Shown here: positions 14,994-26,377 of the stretch, piece after piece
Layout of the letters: each line of letters starts with the position of its first letter
Numbering within the stretch: the first letter of the stretch is position 1
DNA from: Bacilli bacterium
GTDB taxonomy: Bacteria; Bacillota_I; Bacilli_A; RF39; UBA660
Direction of reading: 5' to 3'
Assembly (NCBI GenBank): GCA_007117285.1
Contig: SKGW01000013.1
Coordinates: 1 to 36,067 of the forward strand
Length of the DNA: 36,067 nt
Notes under the pieces: model-generated
The model's input: only the letters and a program-made list of their open reading frames with translations
The model's database searches: none
What the model was told of the DNA's origin: nothing
Program-made: the position numbers and the translations under genes

Positions 14994-17900
14994 ATGATAA
15001 ATGGAACACGTAACAAAATAAAAAATTTAAAAGAGAAAAGAAAAAAGTCCTTAAGGGGCTTTTCTTTGGTGGAACTGTTGGGAGTGATTATACTTTTAAC
15101 AGTTATATTTATGATTGCAACACCAATCGTTTTAAATGTAGTTGAAGATGCTAGAAAATCAGCATTTGCATCAACTGTTTCTTCATTAGTGAAGATCACA
15201 GAAAATGATTGTTTGCAAAGTAGAATTTTTGGGGAGCCAGAAGATCACTATATAGTGTTTGAAAATGGTCAGCAAGAAGGCGAAAAAATAAGTTTTTCCG
15301 GTAGAGCACCGGAAACAGGAACTATTTATGTAACAACGGATTGTAAAGTTGCTTATACACTTCACGATGGGAATTGGTGTGCAGTTAAAACTTTTGAATC
15401 GGCTAATGCTGAAACACACAAAATTTCACCAGAACAGTGTAATTTTGAATACTTTGGAATTTCTACTACAGAGGGAATATTTGAATTAATTGCATTAGGG
15501 TATTTACCAATTTCAAGTATTGAAGATTTACAAGCAATAGGTCAGGGTGAGGCTGATAGAATATGGGGCGAAAGCTCAAGGTTTTCAGTTCAGGGAACTG
15601 GAACAATGACTTCAAATTATGTTATTGTGCAGAACCTAGATTTAACAAGCGTTAATTTTGAACCAATCGGATATCAAATCGGCAACGGTTATGATAGTTT
15701 TGAAGGAATCATAAACGGATATAATCACACATTATCTAATGGAGATATTGATTTTTTAGGTGACAACTATATTGGTGGATTAGTTGCTTATCTTGGAAAT
15801 AACGGCATTATTAGAAACATTAACTTAGAAGATTACTATGTTAGAGGGAACTTAAACGTAGGAGGAATAGCAGGGTTAAATAATGGTGTCATCCAAAATG
15901 CATCATTTACTTTAACAGTAGAAGGAACCGACAATGTTGGTGGAATAGCAGGGAATAACCAAGGTGATATATTTAATAGTGAAGTTACTTCAGTTTTAAT
16001 TGGTGAAAATCAATCATTTGGAAATGATATTGGATTAATATGCGGAGCAGGAACGTGTCCGCTAGTGACAAATGGAAACACAGCTGTTGGTGATATCATT
16101 TATAATTTTTATGATATAGTATTTAATGCAAACGGTGGAGCATTTACAACTATTGAGGGGAACCCAGTAACTGTAACTTCAACAGTGGCAAGAAATACAG
16201 TAACCTCAGAACCAGAAATACCAACGAGACAACATTATGAATTCTTGTGGTGGTTAGATGGAGCAACGCCGTATAATTTTTCAAATTTAGTTACAAGCGG
16301 AAAGACACTTCAAGCACATTGGGGTGTTACACTAGAAATATCAGCACCATTTGAACCAACATGGACTGTTTTAGCAACGAGTATAACAGCAGACATTTCA
16401 CTAGTTGCAAATGCAGATCAATATCGCATTAAACAAACAAGTGAAACAGAATGGTCAGAGTGGGCGGGTAATAATGTATTTACTAATTTACTACCATATA
16501 CTGAATATGACTTTCAAGCTCGTTCTCTAGATCCTTCAGTTTTGGGGAGTATCGCAACATATAGAACTCCAAAATTGGATAATGATGTTCCGGAATTTAC
16601 AGGAACAATAAACTGGACAATTCAAGTAGGAAACGTTACTGCAGAAGTTCCAAATGTTGGAGTAGGTGCAGAATACCGTGTTAATGGCGGAAGCTGGCAG
16701 ACGGGAAGAACATTTTCGTCATTAAATCCAAATGTTGAATATACATTTGAGGCAAGAATGGCGGAAACAGGAACGCACAATGCATCATTAGTTTCAAGTC
16801 CAATTATAGAAACAAGTCCAAAAGCCAATCAAACAATTGGAACTTTAGGAAGTCCATCATGGACAGTTCAAGAAGGAACAGTAACGGCAAGCTTACCTGC
16901 ATTAACAGGAGCAACTCACTATCGAGTTAATGGTGGAACATGGCAGACAGGAACAACATTTGCATCATTAAGCCCAGTAGTTGAATACACGTTTGAAGCA
17001 AGAAAAGCAGAAACAGCAACATTGAATGAAGTAATAAGTAATTCCGTTGCATCAACAAGTCCAAAAGCAAACCAAGCAGCACCAGCGCAACCATCATCAT
17101 CAAACTTACTGTTTGATAGAGTAACAATAACAGGAGCTGCAGGAACACAAGTAAGACAAGGTGTTGCAGGAACTGGATATAACACACCATACACATTTAC
17201 AGGACTGACACAAAATACATCATATAGTTTTTATGCATTCAGACCAGCAACAGCGACACTAAATGCCTCACCAAACAGTGTGGCAAGAACAGTAACAACA
17301 CCATTGCAAGTAGTAGCACCAGGTTTACCAGGAGCATTTACAAGTCCATCAGGAACATTGTTTAGAAATCAAACAGTAACAGTAACATGGGGAGGAACAG
17401 GTTCATGGGGAGTTCCAACATCAGGTCAGAATTATCGATTAGAAATTCAATATGATGCAGGAGCATGGAACTTAGTAGCTAATAATGGAACTTCAACAAC
17501 AAGAAGCCATACACTTGCAAGTGCGGGAAACTCAGTAAGATTTAGAGTAAGAGCAGAAAATTCAAGTGCTCAATCAGATTGGAGATATTCAAGTACATTA
17601 ACATTAACGTCTCCAGCTTGGGTGCTTACAACAGATAACTATCCATCAACACATTATTCAGGGTGTGATACAAGAAAAAATAGACTTCAAATAGGTTCGA
17701 GTTGGGTATACGGAGTTGGAACAATAGCAACTACTCCTGATGGCTGTTCAAACGCAAGTGGAGTTACAATATGGAGCGGTGACTTTCACTTATATGAATG
17801 GCGTGTTACTTTCTTAAGTGGTCCAGATACTTCAGTATGGGGATCAAATGCAACACTAAGAGCAGAATGGCCTTATACACTTCTTTATGGATATGATCCT

Positions 17901-18035
17901 CAGTTTACAAGTGCCGGACAGTCCTTCATATTTGACTCTGCAAGACACATAACTGGTTCACAATGGATCTTTGCTCCAGAAGAAACTTATGGAACGTCAT
18001 ATTTAAGAGTTGAACGAAGATTAAAAGTAAATTGA
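14994..18035 (+). CDS. Modular type IV pilin-like surface protein (prepilin signal and pilin head, GLUG-like beta-helix, Listeria-Bacteroides repeat, five Fn3-like modules, orphan C-terminal domain)
   Basis: An AGAGGTGA RBS precedes the start. The 22-aa basic leader ends in G, followed by FSLVELLGVIILLTVIFMIATP (class III signal, with E5 and P22 in mature numbering). GG[IL][AV]G repeats are spaced 26-29 aa apart. DIVFNANGG...HYEFLWW...LQAHW fits a Flg_new-type repeat. Repeated WT(V/I)..G.VTA...YRVNGG.WQTG..F..L.P.VEYTFEAR modules follow. Confidence 0.85.
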   Translation: MINGTRNKIKNLKEKRKKSLRGFSLVELLGVIILLTVIFMIATPIVLNVVEDARKSAFASTVSSLVKITENDCLQSRIFGEPEDHYIVFENGQQEGEKISFSGRAPETGTIYVTTDCKVAYTLHDGNWCAVKTFESANAETHKISPEQCNFEYFGISTTEGIFELIALGYLPISSIEDLQAIGQGEADRIWGESSRFSVQGTGTMTSNYVIVQNLDLTSVNFEPIGYQIGNGYDSFEGIINGYNHTLSNGDIDFLGDNYIGGLVAYLGNNGIIRNINLEDYYVRGNLNVGGIAGLNNGVIQNASFTLTVEGTDNVGGIAGNNQGDIFNSEVTSVLIGENQSFGNDIGLICGAGTCPLVTNGNTAVGDIIYNFYDIVFNANGGAFTTIEGNPVTVTSTVARNTVTSEPEIPTRQHYEFLWWLDGATPYNFSNLVTSGKTLQAHWGVTLEISAPFEPTWTVLATSITADISLVANADQYRIKQTSETEWSEWAGNNVFTNLLPYTEYDFQARSLDPSVLGSIATYRTPKLDNDVPEFTGTINWTIQVGNVTAEVPNVGVGAEYRVNGGSWQTGRTFSSLNPNVEYTFEARMAETGTHNASLVSSPIIETSPKANQTIGTLGSPSWTVQEGTVTASLPALTGATHYRVNGGTWQTGTTFASLSPVVEYTFEARKAETATLNEVISNSVASTSPKANQAAPAQPSSSNLLFDRVTITGAAGTQVRQGVAGTGYNTPYTFTGLTQNTSYSFYAFRPATATLNASPNSVARTVTTPLQVVAPGLPGAFTSPSGTLFRNQTVTVTWGGTGSWGVPTSGQNYRLEIQYDAGAWNLVANNGTSTTRSHTLASAGNSVRFRVRAENSSAQSDWRYSSTLTLTSPAWVLTTDNYPSTHYSGCDTRKNRLQIGSSWVYGVGTIATTPDGCSNASGVTIWSGDFHLYEWRVTFLSGPDTSVWGSNATLRAEWPYTLLYGYDPQFTSAGQSFIFDSARHITGSQWIFAPEETYGTSYLRVERRLKVN
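16608..17075 (+). repeat. Tandem imperfect direct repeat (two ~225-nt units with a ~246-nt period) encoding adjacent Fn3-like modules
   Basis: Unit A is 16608-16832 and unit B is 16854-17075. Both encode ...WT(I/V)Q.G.VTA..P....GA.YRVNGG.WQTG.TF.SL.P.VEYTFEAR.AET.T.N....S....TSPKANQ. Confidence 0.85.
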
Positions 18036-22404: not shown

Positions 22405-22423
22405 AGATTAATCTACACTTTTA
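22398..22423. terminator. Bidirectional terminator between convergent trxB and the P-II-like gene
   Basis: AGTGTAGA-GATTAA-TCTACACT hairpin (8 bp), flanked by an A-run upstream and a T-run downstream. Confidence 0.75.
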
Positions 22424-23068
22424 ATTTGATCTTTTCATTCCATAAGTATTAGTTACTGATTGAACAAATAGAATTCCATTTCCTGGTTTTTCAATTTCTA
22501 AGTCTTCGGTAATTGCTTTGACTATATTATCTGTTATTTCGCTCTCTGCTAATATTAAAACAACTTCTTTTTCGGGCTCAATTTCCATTGAAAACAACTT
22601 GCTAGTTTCGTGTATTCCAGATCCTCGAGCATTAATAATGGTTCCGCCTTTAGATCCGGCTTTGTTAGCTGAATCAACAACATCAACGGCACGACCTTTA
22701 TCGACAACAACATAAATACAATTAAACATACTTTCCACCTCTACTTTATTATCTGGGTTAGATTTGTTTTTAGAACCGGTAAAATAATTTATACTTGAAG
22801 AAAAGCCAATTCCATTTTGTTTTTCTTTTAATTTTAATTTTTCTTCTATAAAGGGCATTGTAGCATTGGAAATTCTATCCTCTGCAACCATTAAAACTAT
22901 TTCTTTCCTAGTATCACATATACCAAGTACATCTAAAAGTTTGTCATCAACTGTACCTTTACCAAGGAAAATAGTTCCGCCAGTAACTCCCTTTTTTTTG
23001 GCTAATTTTAAAACTTTGCTTCCGATTCCAAAGTCTACTATAACAACCATTAAGCTCAGATTAGTCAT
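22421..23068 (-). CDS. Tandem P-II-like signal-transduction protein (two fused P-II-fold domains)
   Basis: 215 aa. Both halves (about 5-95 and 118-210) follow the beta-alpha-beta / loop / beta-alpha-beta pattern. The second half, IYVVVDKGRAVDVV...GGTIINARGSG...VVLILAE...GNGILFVQSV, aligns with GlnB-type P-II. Its start overlaps the upstream stop in a TAATG junction. Confidence 0.7.
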   Translation of the reverse strand: MTNLSLMVVIVDFGIGSKVLKLAKKKGVTGGTIFLGKGTVDDKLLDVLGICDTRKEIVLMVAEDRISNATMPFIEEKLKLKEKQNGIGFSSSINYFTGSKNKSNPDNKVEVESMFNCIYVVVDKGRAVDVVDSANKAGSKGGTIINARGSGIHETSKLFSMEIEPEKEVVLILAESEITDNIVKAITEDLEIEKPGNGILFVQSVTNTYGMKRSN

Positions 23069-24522
23069 TAAACACCCTCCTTTTTGGATTTTAGTTTAAA
23101 CATGATACCTAATATTTGTAGCGTTATGATAGGAACTAATGCAACGAGTGCAATCATTCCAAATCCATCAGATAAAACAGTTGCTCCTTCAGTTGCTGTT
23201 GCAACACCGTGCATAAACGCTAGAATAAATGTCGCTGTCATTGGACCAGAGGCAACACCACCTGAATCAAATGCAATTCCAACAAATAGATTTGGTGTGA
23301 AAAGCATTAACAAAATTGCAATGCCGTATCCAGGTAGTAAAAACAACCATAAATCTAATTGATATTTAATTTTAATGATTGAAAGAACAATTGCCAGACC
23401 AACACCAATTGCTAGAGATGCAATTACGAATTTCCTTTTTATGTACCCAGCTGTGACCTCTTCAATTTGTTTAGTTAAAACGTATACTGCGGGCTCTGCA
23501 AGAATTGTTGTCATTCCTAATATAAAACATAAGAACAATATTAGAGTAAAATTTTTGTTAGCAAGAGTATGCCCAATTTCTCTTCCGACTTCAAGAAAAC
23601 CAGAGTTAACACCAACTAAGAAAAATATCATTCCAATAAAAGTATACAAAAGACCTTTCTGAATTATTTTCAACTGTCTTCCTTCAAATTTAAAGGAAGT
23701 TTTGTTGAATAATATAAATATTAATAGTATTGGGAGAAGTGCTAAAACTACTTCGCTTGTTATTGATTTTACAATATTAAAAAAACTCAAACTTTCATTT
23801 GCACCCATGTTTTCCAATGGTATAAAGTTACCTTTTGAAATATTGACTAGCAACATTATTATTATGACGCCTGCTGAAACTATTCCAACTAAACCAAAAC
23901 TATCTTTTGCGGAGTCAGTACTGTTTTTATTTAGTTTAGCAATACCTAGAGTTAGAGCTAAGATAAAAGGAACCGCCATCGCTCCTGTTGTGGCTCCTGA
24001 TGTATCAAATGCAATTCCCATCAATTTGTTTGGTGAGAGTGCTGCCAGTAATAAAATTATTGTGTATAAAATCAACATTGTCTTTTTTAATGAAAAATTC
24101 TTAACAATTCTCGTAAGACCATAAGAGAATGAAAGACCAATTCCAATTGATGCTACCACAATAATCATAATATTATTAATAAAACCGTTTGAAAAATAAT
24201 CAATTTGCTTTGCAATTATGTGTAGGTCTGGTTCGGCAACTGAAATGAAAAATCCAAGGAAAAATCCACCAATAATAACAATCCACATTTTATTTTTTTT
24301 CGCTAGGTTTTCACCCATTATATTTCCAATTGGAGATATTGAAAGATCAACACCTAATAAAAATATTGCAAGGCCAAGAATTGTGAGTGCAGATCCAGTT
24401 ATAAACTTAAGTAATAAATCGTTTGATAAAGGCGCAATTGTTAAATGTAACATTAAAACTAGCAATACAACAGGTGCAACGGCAAAAACGACTTCTTTTA
24501 TTTTATGTAACAATATTTTCAA
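23068..24522 (-). CDS. Internally duplicated polytopic membrane protein, DUF1538-like putative transporter
   Basis: 484 aa with a TTG start after a GGGGG RBS. The two halves share motifs: ...ISVAEPDLHIIAKQI / ...TILAEPAVYVLTKQIE and IAFDTSGATTGAMAVPFILAL / IAFDSGGVASGPMTATFILAF. The DUF1538 assignment is from memory of the family and its usual P-II neighbour. Confidence 0.6.
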   Translation of the reverse strand: MKILLHKIKEVVFAVAPVVLLVLMLHLTIAPLSNDLLLKFITGSALTILGLAIFLLGVDLSISPIGNIMGENLAKKNKMWIVIIGGFFLGFFISVAEPDLHIIAKQIDYFSNGFINNIMIIVVASIGIGLSFSYGLTRIVKNFSLKKTMLILYTIILLLAALSPNKLMGIAFDTSGATTGAMAVPFILALTLGIAKLNKNSTDSAKDSFGLVGIVSAGVIIIMLLVNISKGNFIPLENMGANESLSFFNIVKSITSEVVLALLPILLIFILFNKTSFKFEGRQLKIIQKGLLYTFIGMIFFLVGVNSGFLEVGREIGHTLANKNFTLILFLCFILGMTTILAEPAVYVLTKQIEEVTAGYIKRKFVIASLAIGVGLAIVLSIIKIKYQLDLWLFLLPGYGIAILLMLFTPNLFVGIAFDSGGVASGPMTATFILAFMHGVATATEGATVLSDGFGMIALVALVPIITLQILGIMFKLKSKKEGV

Positions 24523-24608: not shown

Positions 24609-24637
24609 TTGACTATGAAAAGTTGTTGTGATATATT
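24609..24637 (+). promoter_or_regulatory. Promoter of pilin paralog 1
   Basis: TTGACT (24609-24614), a 17-nt spacer ending in TGa, then TATATT (24632-24637). The conserved 5'UTR GTAAGATAAGGAGGG follows. Confidence 0.6.
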
Positions 24638-24663
24638 GTTATTGTAAGATAAGGAGGGTAATT

Positions 24664-25158
24664 ATGAATAAGAAAGGTTTTACACTAATCGAACTATTGG
24701 CGGTAATCGTTGTACTAGCAATCATCTTATTAATAGCAATGCCAATCGTACTTAATGTTATTAATGATGCAAGACAAGGTGCTTTTGATGCAACTGCACA
24801 AGGTATGGTTAAAGCAGCTGAAAATGAATATATGAGAGGTGCCTTAGACAACAGCGTTGAAGAAAAGTGGTATGAATTTGCAGGTGGAGTTCAAACTGTT
24901 TATGTTTGCGAAACTGAAGCTTGCCTTAACAGTATCGTGGATGCTGGTGCTGACAAATTAAACTTCTCAGGTCAAGGACCGGATACAGGAACAATTTATG
25001 TTGCTGCAGATGGAGAGATCGGAATGTTTATAAGTGATGGAACATATTGCTCACAAAAAGAAGTTGGAAAAAACACTACTGTTGCAACAACACAAGCAGA
25101 ATGTCCGACATCAGGAGAACCGGGATCATTATACTATGACGTTGTTAGACCACAGTAA
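24664..25158 (+). CDS. Type IV pilin-like protein, paralog 1 (prepilin-type N-terminal cleavage/methylation motif)
   Basis: MNKKG|FTLIELLAVIVVLAIILLIAMPIV (E5 and P22) with an AAGGAGGG RBS. The head motif is FSGQGPDTGTIYVAADGEIGMFISDGTYC. The ORF-track start at 24628 is a UTR read-through. Confidence 0.88.
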   Translation: MNKKGFTLIELLAVIVVLAIILLIAMPIVLNVINDARQGAFDATAQGMVKAAENEYMRGALDNSVEEKWYEFAGGVQTVYVCETEACLNSIVDAGADKLNFSGQGPDTGTIYVAADGEIGMFISDGTYCSQKEVGKNTTVATTQAECPTSGEPGSLYYDVVRPQ

Positions 25159-25165
25159 AACTAAA

Positions 25166-25188
25166 GGAAGATTTTCTTCCTTTTTTTT
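25166..25188 (+). terminator. Rho-independent terminator of pilin 1
   Basis: GGAAGA-TTT-TCTTCC hairpin followed by a T8 run. Confidence 0.75.
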
Positions 25189-25218
25189 GTCCACTTGTAA
25201 AGAAAATCACTTTGCATA

Positions 25219-25248
25219 TTGACTGATTAAACATTAACATGATATATT
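25219..25248 (+). promoter_or_regulatory. Promoter of pilin paralog 2
   Basis: TTGACT (25219-25224), an 18-nt spacer with TGa, then TATATT (25243-25248). The same GTAAGATAAGGAGGG UTR follows. Confidence 0.6.
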
Positions 25249-25274
25249 TAAACAGTAAGATAAGGAGGGAAATT

Positions 25275-25736
25275 ATGAATAAGAAAGGTTTTACATTAAT
25301 TGAGCTATTGGCGGTAATCGTTGTATTAGCAATTATCCTATTAATAGCAATGCCAATTGTACTTAATGTTATTAATGATGCTAGACAAGGTGCTTTCAAT
25401 TCAACGGGTTATGGATTGGTGAAAGCAGCAGAGAACGAGCACATGAGAACAGCACTTGAAGGCGGAACAATAATGGAAACGACATATAACTTCGCAGGTG
25501 ATGTTTCAGCATTAGACTTTTCAGGAGAAGCACCAACTCACGGAACAATCTTTGTTGCAGTAGATGGAACAATTGAAATGGCCGTTACAAATGGAGCTTT
25601 CTGTGCTGTAAAAGAATCTGATTCAACTGAAGTAAAAACATATACTTGGTCTGAATTGCAAGCAGAAGCAGCATATACAGCAGTAGCCATTAATAACATA
25701 ACTACCGATTGTAACGTTGCAACATTAATGCCATAA
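25275..25736 (+). CDS. Type IV pilin-like protein, paralog 2
   Basis: Its first 40 aa are identical to paralog 1 (MNKKGFTLIELLAVIVVLAIILLIAMPIVLNVINDARQGAF). It has FSGEAPTHGTIFVAVDGT...NGAFCAVK and a C-terminal CNVATL, which could form a Cys pair. Confidence 0.88.
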   Translation: MNKKGFTLIELLAVIVVLAIILLIAMPIVLNVINDARQGAFNSTGYGLVKAAENEHMRTALEGGTIMETTYNFAGDVSALDFSGEAPTHGTIFVAVDGTIEMAVTNGAFCAVKESDSTEVKTYTWSELQAEAAYTAVAINNITTDCNVATLMP

Positions 25737-25742
25737 CACTAA

Positions 25743-25765
25743 ACAGAATTTAATTCTGTTTTTTT
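25743..25765 (+). terminator. Rho-independent terminator of pilin 2
   Basis: ACAGAAT-TTA-ATTCTGT hairpin followed by a T-run. Confidence 0.8.
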
Positions 25766-25810
25766 CTTGTCATTAAAGAGACAAAAAGAAATTAAAAATA
25801 TTGACTATAT

Positions 25811-25840
25811 ATTATTTGTTGTGTTATATTAATATTGTAA
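25811..25840 (+). promoter_or_regulatory. Promoter of pilin paralog 3
   Basis: TTGACT (25811-25816), an 18-nt spacer with TGt, then TATATT (25835-25840). The same GTAAGATAAGGAGGG UTR follows. Confidence 0.6.
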
Positions 25841-25858
25841 GATAAGGAGGGGAAGAAA

Positions 25859-26335
25859 ATGAATAAGAGAGGTTTTACATTAATTGAATTATTAGCAGTA
25901 ATCGTCGTATTAGCAATCATCTTATTAATAGCAATGCCAATTGTACTAAGTGTTATTAATGATGCTAGAGAAGGAGCTTTCAATTCAACAGGTTATGGAT
26001 TGGTGAAAGCAGCTGAGAATGAGCACATGAGAAATGCACTTGATGGTGGAGTTATGGCAACTCAAACTTACACTTTTAATGAAGCTGGTGATGGTACCGG
26101 TAACACTTTGCTGGACTTTTCAGGAGAAGCACCAACTAGTGGATCAATAGTTGTTGAAGTTGATGGAACTACATACATGGCTATTTCAAATGGAGCATTT
26201 TGTGCAGTTAAAGCATATAACTCGACAGAAGTTATTACTTATGATGGAGATGGACTTAATGAAGCTTTTACAGAAGCTACAAACGGAATAGCTCATTGTA
26301 ACGTGGCTACTTTAACAAGCTTAGCAACACCATAA
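25859..26335 (+). CDS. Type IV pilin-like protein, paralog 3
   Basis: MNKRG|FTLIELLAVIVVLAIILLIAMPIVLSVINDAREGAF N-terminus. It has FSGEAPTSGSIVVEVDGT...NGAFCAVK and CNVATL motifs. Confidence 0.88.
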   Translation: MNKRGFTLIELLAVIVVLAIILLIAMPIVLSVINDAREGAFNSTGYGLVKAAENEHMRNALDGGVMATQTYTFNEAGDGTGNTLLDFSGEAPTSGSIVVEVDGTTYMAISNGAFCAVKAYNSTEVITYDGDGLNEAFTEATNGIAHCNVATLTSLATP

Positions 26336-26354
26336 CAAAAACATTATAAACTAA

Positions 26355-26377
26355 ACAGAATTTAATTCTGTTTTTTT
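26355..26377 (+). terminator. Rho-independent terminator of pilin 3 (sequence identical to the pilin 2 terminator)
   Basis: The block ACTAAACAGAATTTAATTCTGTTTTTTT is identical to the one after pilin 2. Confidence 0.8.

Follow-up and report, generated by a model that had tools for sequence, protein, structure and literature searches.

Array of three tandem prepilin genes

The genes described here lie in a 36-kb stretch of DNA from an uncultured Bacillota organism (positions 1 to 36,067 of contig SKGW01000013.1, GenBank assembly GCA_007117285.1; 33% GC), hereafter called the window, which extends from the S10-spc-alpha ribosomal operon at one end to murA and fba at the other. Between positions 24609 and 26377, the window harbors three prepilin genes, all on the plus strand and here named p1, p2, and p3. 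The array is placed between a divergently oriented pair of genes for a P-II-like protein and a DUF1538 membrane protein on one side and ligA on the other, and the encoded proteins have lengths of 164, 153, and 158 amino acids (aa), respectively. The true start codons are the ATGs at 24664, 25275, and 25859, each with AAGGAGGG located 6 to 8 nucleotides (nt) upstream. Starts called by the open reading frame finder at 24628 (p1) and 25239 (p2) are mechanical upstream extensions and not real starts.

The initial annotation of this DNA had described three tandem, separately signalled pilin units, and every element of that description was found at its place. Unit 1 begins with a promoter-like site at 24609 to 24637 (TTGACT, a 17-nt spacer, and a TG-extended TATATT; 10 of 12 matches with the TG present), followed by a conserved leader with a Shine-Dalgarno (SD) sequence, GTAAGATAAGGAGGG, at 24644 to 24658. 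The p1 gene (24664 to 25158) encodes a prepilin with the N terminus MNKKG/FTLIELL and four cysteines, including an extra Cys pair in the alpha-beta loop (here called the p1 type), and is followed by a terminator-like hairpin with a 9-bp stem, a 3-nt loop, and a T-run at 25163 to 25188 (-9.9 kcal/mol, z = -2.3). Unit 2 consists of a promoter-like site at 25219 to 25248 (the same elements with an 18-nt spacer, 10 of 12 matches), the leader and SD sequence at 25255 to 25269, the p2 gene at 25275 to 25736, which encodes a two-cysteine prepilin (the p2 type) recognized by profiles, and a hairpin with T-run at 25741 to 25765 (-6.7 kcal/mol) within a 28-nt block at 25738 to 25765. Unit 3 likewise has a promoter-like site with an 18-nt spacer at 25801 to 25830 (10 of 12 matches) and a leader at 25837 to 25851, which, like the other two, matches the 15-mer exactly. 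Its gene, p3 (25859 to 26335), is a second p2-type copy with the N terminus MNKRG/FTLIELL and the C terminus ...SLATP, and it ends in a hairpin with T-run at 26353 to 26377 (-8.1 kcal/mol).

A homogenized 5' module of 209 nt, which comprises the -10 box, the leader, and codons 1 to 58, forms a repeat family across the array. Measured against the reference copy at 24629 to 24837, the copies at 25240 to 25448 and 25824 to 26032 match at 85% and 76%, respectively.

Signals for separate expression

The promoter-like sites of the three units are three of the four best matches (10/12) between positions 24000 and 27000, and the overall number of such sites in this AT-rich region is unremarkable (19, versus 14.9 ± 3.2 in shuffled sequences). 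The 15-mer GTAAGATAAGGAGGG occurs exactly three times in the 36 kb (24644, 25255, and 25837); with up to two mismatches, 0.06 occurrences are expected, and three copies were reached in 0 of 100 shuffles. A hairpin with a 9-bp stem, a 3-nt loop, and a T-run follows every stop codon (z = -2.3 to -3.5). A scan for GC-rich terminators was passed by the hairpin of unit 1 only, those of units 2 and 3 being AT-rich and weak. The 28-nt block ACTAAACAGAATTTAATTCTGTTTTTTT is identical after p2 (25738 to 25765) and p3 (26350 to 26377), as had been noted before. These motif, leader, and hairpin scans bear out the assignment of an own promoter-like site, SD sequence, and terminator-like hairpin to each gene, and each gene probably forms a transcription unit of its own, driven by a strong promoter of the sigma-A type, equipped with a strong SD sequence, and ended by its own hairpin. 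Codon adaptation of p1 to p3 (0.67 to 0.71) is similar to the mean of the ribosomal protein genes (0.70), with other genes at 0.57 to 0.70, which weakly hints at high expression of the pilins.

A promoter and a terminator for every copy would also suit a repertoire for alternative use, in which each gene serves as the sole major pilin under different conditions and gives rise to homopolymeric filaments with different adhesive properties. The spacers between the -35 and -10 boxes and the sequences upstream of the -35 box differ among the units, and a precedent exists in Haloferax volcanii, whose six dispersed pilins are each able to form a pilus alone (PMC4371748). However, the core promoter hexamers, the TG motif, and the leader are the same in all three units, and neither an operator-like or invertible element nor any sequence hint of differential control was found. 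We therefore regard alternative use as possible, though rather unlikely. A scan of the array for phase-variation devices detected neither inverted repeats flanking the promoters nor repeat tracts; strong inverted repeats were limited to the terminator palindromes.

Protein class and predicted fold

A class III signal can be read directly from the three sequences, with Gly at -1, Phe at +1, and Glu at +5 (MNKKG/FTLIE in p1 and p2, MNKRG/FTLIE in p3). Scores with PF07963 (31.6 to 32.3 bits; cutoff, 21.2) and TIGR02532 (32.5 to 33.4 bits; cutoff, 16.3) exceed the curated thresholds, in agreement with the earlier designation as pilin paralogs, and judged by these signatures p1, p2, and p3 are type IV pilins.

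Three more specific assignments were rejected. Matches to ComGC (NF040999) reached 26.2 to 29.8 bits versus a cutoff of 75 and covered only the N-terminal part (residues 1 to 53 at most), and the neighbors of the array are DUF1538 and ligA and not a comGA-GG operon. Matches to GspG (TIGR01710) reached 22.8 to 25.1 bits versus a cutoff of 88.85 and were confined to the N-terminal helix. Pilins of the Flp/Tad type have about 50 to 80 aa and a G/xxxxEY motif and are encoded in a tad operon, whereas the mature p1 to p3 proteins have 148 to 159 aa and the motif G/FTLIEL, and the window contains no tad genes. A true Flp gene, which is present in a relative (locus L089, 6712 to 6909; loci from other assemblies are denoted by L numbers), differs in its G/QALVEY motif.

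An AlphaFold2 model of p2 based on 20 homologs (predicted local distance difference test [pLDDT] score of 85.4) contains a helix of 54 residues (8 to 61) and strands at residues 69 to 72, 89 to 94, 100 to 105, 109 to 113, and 121 to 124. This predicted layout of a long helix and a five-strand sheet fits the lollipop topology of pilins. A model of the head alone was in agreement with the full model (pLDDT of 81). Foldseek searches of the PDB yielded no significant neighbor for either (best E values of 0.45 for the full p2 model and 0.64 for the head alone), and sequence matches in the PDB end at or before residue 73, i.e., they cover the N-terminal helix only. This indicates that the head is pilin-like in its predicted topology and has no close counterpart among solved pilins.

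When the p2 head alone was searched against 1.84 billion cluster representatives, 97 clusters matched at E ≤ 1e-3, and in most of them the match was an N-terminal module of about 80 residues in proteins of 300 to 2000 aa. As far as these matches tell, the head family of p1 to p3 is narrow and is often the base of putative modular pilins. Furthermore, the p2 head matches 3 to 10 separate internal stretches in some proteins of 1600 to 2200 aa (P0244, P0252, P0257, and P0278), and part of the head sheet may thus resemble a repeat unit of giant surface proteins.

The use of this head as the N-terminal base of many modular proteins of 300 to 2000 aa could mean that p1 to p3 are not major subunits at all. 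They might be minor pilins or pseudopilins of a short filament for competence or secretion, or membrane-anchored surface proteins that borrow a class III signal; ComGC is the best named partial match in NCBIfam, and a modular architecture is described as typical of minor or tip pilins in Streptococcus sanguinis (PMC8179133). Against this, the ComGC scores of 26 to 30 bits stay well below the cutoff of 75 and derive from N-terminal residues only. The mature length of 148 to 159 aa, Glu at +5, the strong promoter and SD sequence, and the ribosomal-protein-like codon usage fit abundant major subunits. Moreover, the genes are not part of a comG-like polycistronic set, and the sets of this kind that occur in relatives (L036, L053, and L163) differ in having short gaps and divergent N termini. 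A role other than that of major subunits appears improbable to us.

A fourth, modular paralog in the window

A fourth paralog, not mentioned in the initial annotation, is located directly after rplQ at 14994 to 18035 (plus strand) and encodes a modular pilin of 1013 aa with a long basic leader ending in RG/FSLVELL. Its head shares 39% identity with p2 over 139 residues (E = 7e-27), and the remaining approximately 850 aa show weak matches to GLUG, Listeria-Bacteroides-repeat, and fn3-like domains. The promoter and leader of this gene are unlike those of p1 to p3, with which neither its upstream region nor its N terminus is homogenized. In a metagenome-assembled genome (MAG) from a soda lake (L004), the slot after rplQ is occupied by a small pilin of 147 aa, and there is no pilin before ligA. 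In the closest MAG (L012, 1125 to 8723), a 1419-aa modular pilin with Flg_new_2 repeats and a Fib_succ_major domain is preceded by a PGI-like gene and a gene for a 2532-aa protein of the GH94 family, i.e., of the cellobiose/chitobiose phosphorylase or cyclic glucan synthase type.

Mosaic divergence along the genes

Similarity between the three genes is highest at their 5' ends. A recount of the differences between p1 and p2 reproduced the earlier figures exactly: the two genes differ at 11 of their first 128 nt, and all 9 differences up to nt 123 are synonymous. Residues 1 to 41 are identical in p1 and p2, and p3 differs at three of these positions. The sharp divergence reported downstream of the shared part corresponds to significant maximum chi-square breaks, at position 24786 (codon 41) for units 1 and 2 and at position 25460 (codon 62) for units 2 and 3, each reached in 0 of 1000 permutations. 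Identity between p2 and p3 amounts to 93 to 95% over residues 1 to 61, drops to 62% across the alpha-beta loop and sheet, and is lowest, at 45%, in the stretch separating the Cys residues. The earlier view that variation is concentrated between the cysteines holds insofar as this stretch is the most variable one; however, the alpha-beta loop varies too and is where the indels fall, among them, in p1, a 20-residue insert containing the extra Cys pair. Overall, the heads of p1 to p3 share 37 to 64% identity, with a conserved Cys pair in each.

Since residues 1 to 40 hardly vary among the 20 aligned homologs, which come from different genomes, protein identity alone is uninformative with regard to gene conversion, and most of the N-terminal identity is, on this alignment, attributable to family-wide purifying selection. 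Synonymous sites were therefore compared, and their divergence was 0.3 in the 5' block versus 0.6 to 0.9 downstream of it. The proportion of synonymous differences (pS) between p1 and p2 is 0.31 in codons 1 to 41 versus 0.90 in codons 42 to 61 (Fisher P = 0.004), and the synonymous divergence (dS) between p2 and p3 is 0.32 to 0.41 in codons 1 to 61 versus 1.2 to 1.4 downstream (Fisher P = 0.001). In a block of 37 codons, pS within a genome is 0.32 to 0.43 in the window, 0.41 to 0.49 in L001 (GCA_964349455.1), a genus-level relative, and 0.19 in L007. Between genomes, pS is 0.51 to 0.89, so that the low values within genomes do not reflect a ceiling imposed by codon bias.

The distribution of informative sites points in the same direction. 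In the quartet of p1 and p2 with the two pilins at the corresponding position in L001 (L001_b and L001_c), the 5' sites group 14 times by genome, 4 times by head type, and once otherwise, versus 10:18:10 for the 3' sites, which favor head type (P = 0.007). Four amino acid states are genome specific and common to paralogs (presence of Asn2, Val/Ile at 17, Asp/Glu at 35, and Gln/Lys at 38). The same applies to the untranslated leaders, including that of an L001 copy located 5 kb from the pair.

Tandem pilin genes in relatives were compared in 32 pairs among the fetched loci, using the 111-nt block from Gly-1 to Phe36. In L061, L084, L113, L052, and L010, tandem pilins differ at 0 to 4 of the 111 nt, and their heads are only 53 to 76% identical. 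Pairs with 0 to 2 differences in this block are located in L061 (from 4532), L084 (from 4215), L113 (from 198), and L157 (from 1857), again with heads only 53 to 76% identical; L157 has four such pilin genes in a row. The 5' homogenization in these more distant relatives is far stronger than that in the window. In L050 and L052, which have three-gene arrays, every gene likewise has its own promoter-like site and SD sequence. Taken together, the sequence comparisons support concerted evolution of the 5' ends beyond protein-level constraint. Gene conversion across the shared 5' block, as suggested by the initial annotation, probably took place in the past, given the drop in pS and dS, the quartet sites, and the genome-specific leaders.

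Age and stability of the array

In L001, the gene order is trxB, P-II, DUF1538, two pilins, and ligA. The first of its pilins is of the four-cysteine p1 type and has, like p1, a GVQxVxxCxxxxC insert with the additional Cys pair, and the second resembles p2 and p3. Head identities agree with this: the p1 head is closest to P0012 (0.47), followed by L001_b (0.44), and the p2 head is closest to that of p3 (0.64), followed by L001_c (0.53). A pair of p1 and p2 types at the same position between DUF1538 and ligA in both genomes indicates that the pair is old, and on these comparisons the likeliest history is an ancestral pair whose p2 type was duplicated later, in the lineage of the window. The identical terminator blocks had been taken as a sign of a recent tandem duplication of p2 and p3; this was rejected, as dS in the heads is about 1.2 to 1.4, compared with 0.3 to 0.4 in codons 1 to 61. 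With heads this diverged, the identical terminator and the similar 5' ends point to homogenized or constrained flanks and not to youth.

Two further, independent assemblies contain almost the same DNA. L008 (ENA assembly ERZ27301260) has 7 mismatches to the window in 20.5 kb (99.97% identity), and L009 (Logan assembly, SRR7083930) has 1 mismatch in 1183 nt. The sole polymorphism in the array is at position 25070, where the window has A and both L008 and L009 have G, resulting in K136R in the Cys-Cys region of p1. No chimeric p1/p2/p3 alleles were found in the three assemblies, which are a small sample of consensus assemblies and not reads.

These data bear on programmed antigenic variation, i.e., frequent exchange of head segments by gene conversion across shared 5' and 3' blocks that would generate chimeric alleles. 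The variable head is indeed bracketed by the 5' module and, in p2 and p3, by CNVATL and the terminator, and the array bears traces of earlier conversion. However, every copy is complete and apparently expressed, without the asymmetry of silent donors and an expression locus; L008 and L009 share the array with a single-nucleotide difference and no chimeras; the p1 and p2 head types are recognizable at the same locus in a genus-level relative; and the saturated dS of the heads argues against frequent head exchange. With complete copies, no invertible or slippage element, no chimeras, and stable head types, variation of the Neisseria kind is unlikely, and we consider programmed variation of the array very improbable. 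The variable repertoire proposed in the initial annotation, if taken to be a fast-changing one, is likewise at odds with the retention of both types in L001 and with one polymorphism across three assemblies.

Closer relatives were sought in JGI metagenome and GTDB genome collections, where the best matches were 44 to 63% identical. The closest other genomes are MAGs titled Mollicutes bacterium or, implausibly, Muribaculaceae. The entries titled "uncultured Muribaculaceae bacterium" (L012, L018, L019, L032, L036, L037, L076, and L078) are very probably mislabelled, as suggested by their Bacilli-type pilin family and Bacilli-type gene order. The P-II-like and DUF1538 genes form a divergent pair directly upstream of the array (22421 to 24522, minus strand). 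This pair also precedes the pilins in L001 and is absent in L004, such that in each of these three genomes pair and array either occur together or are both lacking.

Search for the assembly machinery

No gene for a prepilin peptidase, a T2SSE-type ATPase, or a T2SSF platform protein was found in the window, as had been observed before. The surroundings of the pilin family were then covered by motif scans (T2SSE Walker A, Walker B, and His boxes) and by phmmer with TadZ/A/B/C seeds in 171 loci plus the window (1.86 Mb); for L172 and L173, Pfam assignments of the called genes served instead. None of the 173 family loci, with up to 10 kb of flanking sequence each, encoded a PilB- or ComGA-like ATPase. 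An orphan location is the norm for this pilin family in a clade of uncultured Bacilli, and the distance from the machinery, which had been viewed as unusual, is not peculiar to the array.

Genes of the tad type were detected at 3 of the 173 loci (tadA at L047 and L089, tadB/tadC at L102), where family pilins are embedded in or abut a tad operon. Pfam searches of L047 revealed T2SSE, two T2SSF genes, a ParA-like TadZ, and TadE. The tad regions at L047 (3550 to 11362), L089 (6712 to 10498), and L102 (2 to 2884) combine GFTLIELL-type pilins with genes for Flp, two TadE proteins, TadZ, CpaF/TadA, TadB, and TadC. At L047, the first modular pilin gene begins 2 nt after tadC, and at L089 the gene for a 172-aa pilin begins at the tadA stop codon. 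A tad operon as the general home of the family was rejected, as L091, an operon fetched through its own TadA, is complete and has its own Flp and no such pilin; the tad link is thus a lead only. A search with the TadA of L047 against 5.8 billion proteins gave 120 matches, which came exclusively from gut lineages with identities of 78% or more, and did not reach the lineage of the window. The contexts of P0218, P0074, and P0042 provided no link to machinery, and Pfam searches around further pilin loci of the closest MAG (L012 and L037) showed housekeeping genes and the GH94 gene only.

Hints of pilin glycosylation came from relatives. In L001 (28 to 1808) and L007 (280 to 2611), a gene for a Wzy_C (O-antigen-ligase-like) protein of 422 to 425 aa directly adjoins family pilins ending in ...TTP or ...PTP. 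A C-terminal (S/T)P is found in about one-third of the family, including p3 (...SLATP), and the window contains no Wzy_C gene. In two more distant relatives, L172 (10001 to 12972) and L173 (10001 to 13495), an orphan pilin is immediately followed by a gene for an approximately 840-aa YfhO-family membrane glycosyltransferase, accompanied by GtrA in L173. The position of the YfhO gene may be a second hint of pilin glycosylation in the clade.

A more far-reaching reading combines these leads. The promoter-leader-alpha1N part would be a portable cassette for very different heads (from those of 150-aa pilins to adhesin-bearing proteins of >1000 aa), kept uniform within each genome by conversion, and reduced-genome, wall-bearing uncultured Bacilli would use it for a mixed, possibly glycosylated filament. 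The filament would be built by a Tad-type machine conserved in the clade (CpaF/TadB/TadC, not PilB/ComGA), and the glycosylation would be carried out by Wzy_C or YfhO proteins whose genes adjoin some of the pilins. If true, this would be a hybrid of type IVa-like pilins and a Tad machine; we consider it doubtful.

Proposed role of the array

We think it fairly probable that p1, p2, and p3 are structural subunits of a single type IV filament, each transcribed on its own and abundantly expressed, with a machine encoded elsewhere and a 5' module kept by selection together with conversion. They would be major-pilin-like paralogs, with the genes for the prepilin peptidase, ATPase, and platform protein at other sites of the genome. 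Once the proteins are inserted by Sec, their MNK(K/R)G leader would be removed by cleavage in front of Phe1, and the hydrophobic helix that they have in common would allow all three to share one filament core. Their divergent heads, with their differing alpha-beta loops and Cys-Cys regions, would give the filament a mixed, condition-dependent, or switchable surface. Strong purifying selection on the helix and occasional gene conversion would have kept the promoter-leader-alpha1N module alike. The likeliest function of the filament would be adhesion, exerted together with the modular paralog, given that modular paralogs of the family are adhesin-like.

Several points weigh against this proposal. 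The peptidase, ATPase, and platform genes are all missing from the 36 kb, Foldseek found no solved pilin head like that of the p2 model, and the weakness of the terminators after p2 and p3 makes some read-through, and hence partial co-transcription, possible. With regard to conversion, the by-genome synonymous signal could partly be shared codon preference, and a test of a single pair within the window versus orthologs was weak (9 versus 18 differences, P = 0.10). Furthermore, the 5' blocks of the window still differ at 9 to 14 of 111 nt, which indicates that conversion here was old, patchy, or partial.

Knowledge of type IV filaments in monoderm bacteria comes from very few models. The literature searched held no pilus biology for the clade of the window (MAGs labelled Mollicutes, Tenericutes, or Bacilli bacterium) and nothing relevant on pili of the RF39, Izemoplasma-like, or "environmental Tenericutes" lineages. 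The array is an expected kind of gene-family behavior and not a new mechanism. It is a clean example of pilins that would stay machine-compatible while their surfaces diverge, the compatible part being a short, DNA-homogenized module of promoter, translation start, and polymerization helix that is often more extreme in relatives. The main interest lies in this clade-wide homogenized promoter-leader-helix module and in the question of which machine assembles p1 to p3.

Comparison with known systems

With ComGC of Bacilli, p1 to p3 share the type of class III signal (KG/FTLIE...) and a monoderm host, and ComGC is the best-scoring named NCBIfam equivalog. In contrast to ComGC, the mature proteins have about 150 aa instead of about 90, and the genes lie outside any operon with ComGA and ComGB.

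The pilE/pilS system of Neisseria is similar in having multiple copies, conserved segments that bracket Cys-flanked variable loops, and gene conversion between copies. The pilS copies are silent donors to pilE that have neither a promoter nor the 5' coding region, whereas every copy of the array has a promoter-like site, an SD sequence, an ATG, and a full N terminus. In addition, the conserved part in p1 to p3 is the 5' end itself, and the three assemblies contain no population-level chimeras.

TfpO and TfpM are Wzy_C proteins of 420 to 470 aa that glycosylate C-terminal Ser/Thr residues of pilins (PMC9829042). The candidate enzyme-substrate pairs of Wzy_C protein and pilin in L001 and L007 resemble these enzymes and their cognate pilins, a likeness that holds for the relatives and not for the window. 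Unlike the substrates of TfpO and TfpM, the pilins in question carry the hydroxyl residue in the penultimate position, before Pro, and their hosts are monoderm.

The six dispersed pilins PilA1 to PilA6 of H. volcanii have an almost fully conserved H-domain, and none of them is co-regulated with the biosynthesis genes (PMC4371748). As in the window, the pilin genes lie away from the biosynthesis genes and combine a conserved hydrophobic domain with a divergent rest. The H. volcanii pilins differ from p1 to p3 in being archaeal, PibD-processed, free of a requirement for Glu at +5, and non-homologous, and conversion of a 5' DNA block is not the point made for them.

The other of the two closest precedents, beside H. 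volcanii, is found in S. sanguinis, where PilE1 and PilE2 have an identical N-terminal portion of alpha1 and polymerize stochastically into one pilus (PMC10628169). Both cases involve adjacent paralogous pilins of Bacillota with the same alpha1N and different alpha-beta loops and C termini; p1 and p2 are likewise tandem and identical over residues 1 to 41, with p3 differing at three positions. Modular pilins with extra domains are reported to occur alongside in S. sanguinis (PMC8179133), as does the 1013-aa paralog here. PilE1 and PilE2 differ from p1 to p3 in being encoded inside the pil locus with the machinery and in their extensive identity throughout. The genes of the array are orphans between DUF1538 and ligA, present in three copies with their own promoter and terminator signals and a conserved Cys pair, and they show no similarity to PilE1/PilE2 beyond alpha1N (8pfb_G matches residues 6 to 52 only). 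If p1 to p3 do co-assemble, they would represent a second, independent case of a heteropolymeric pilus after that of S. sanguinis and a natural experiment on how much head divergence one filament tolerates.

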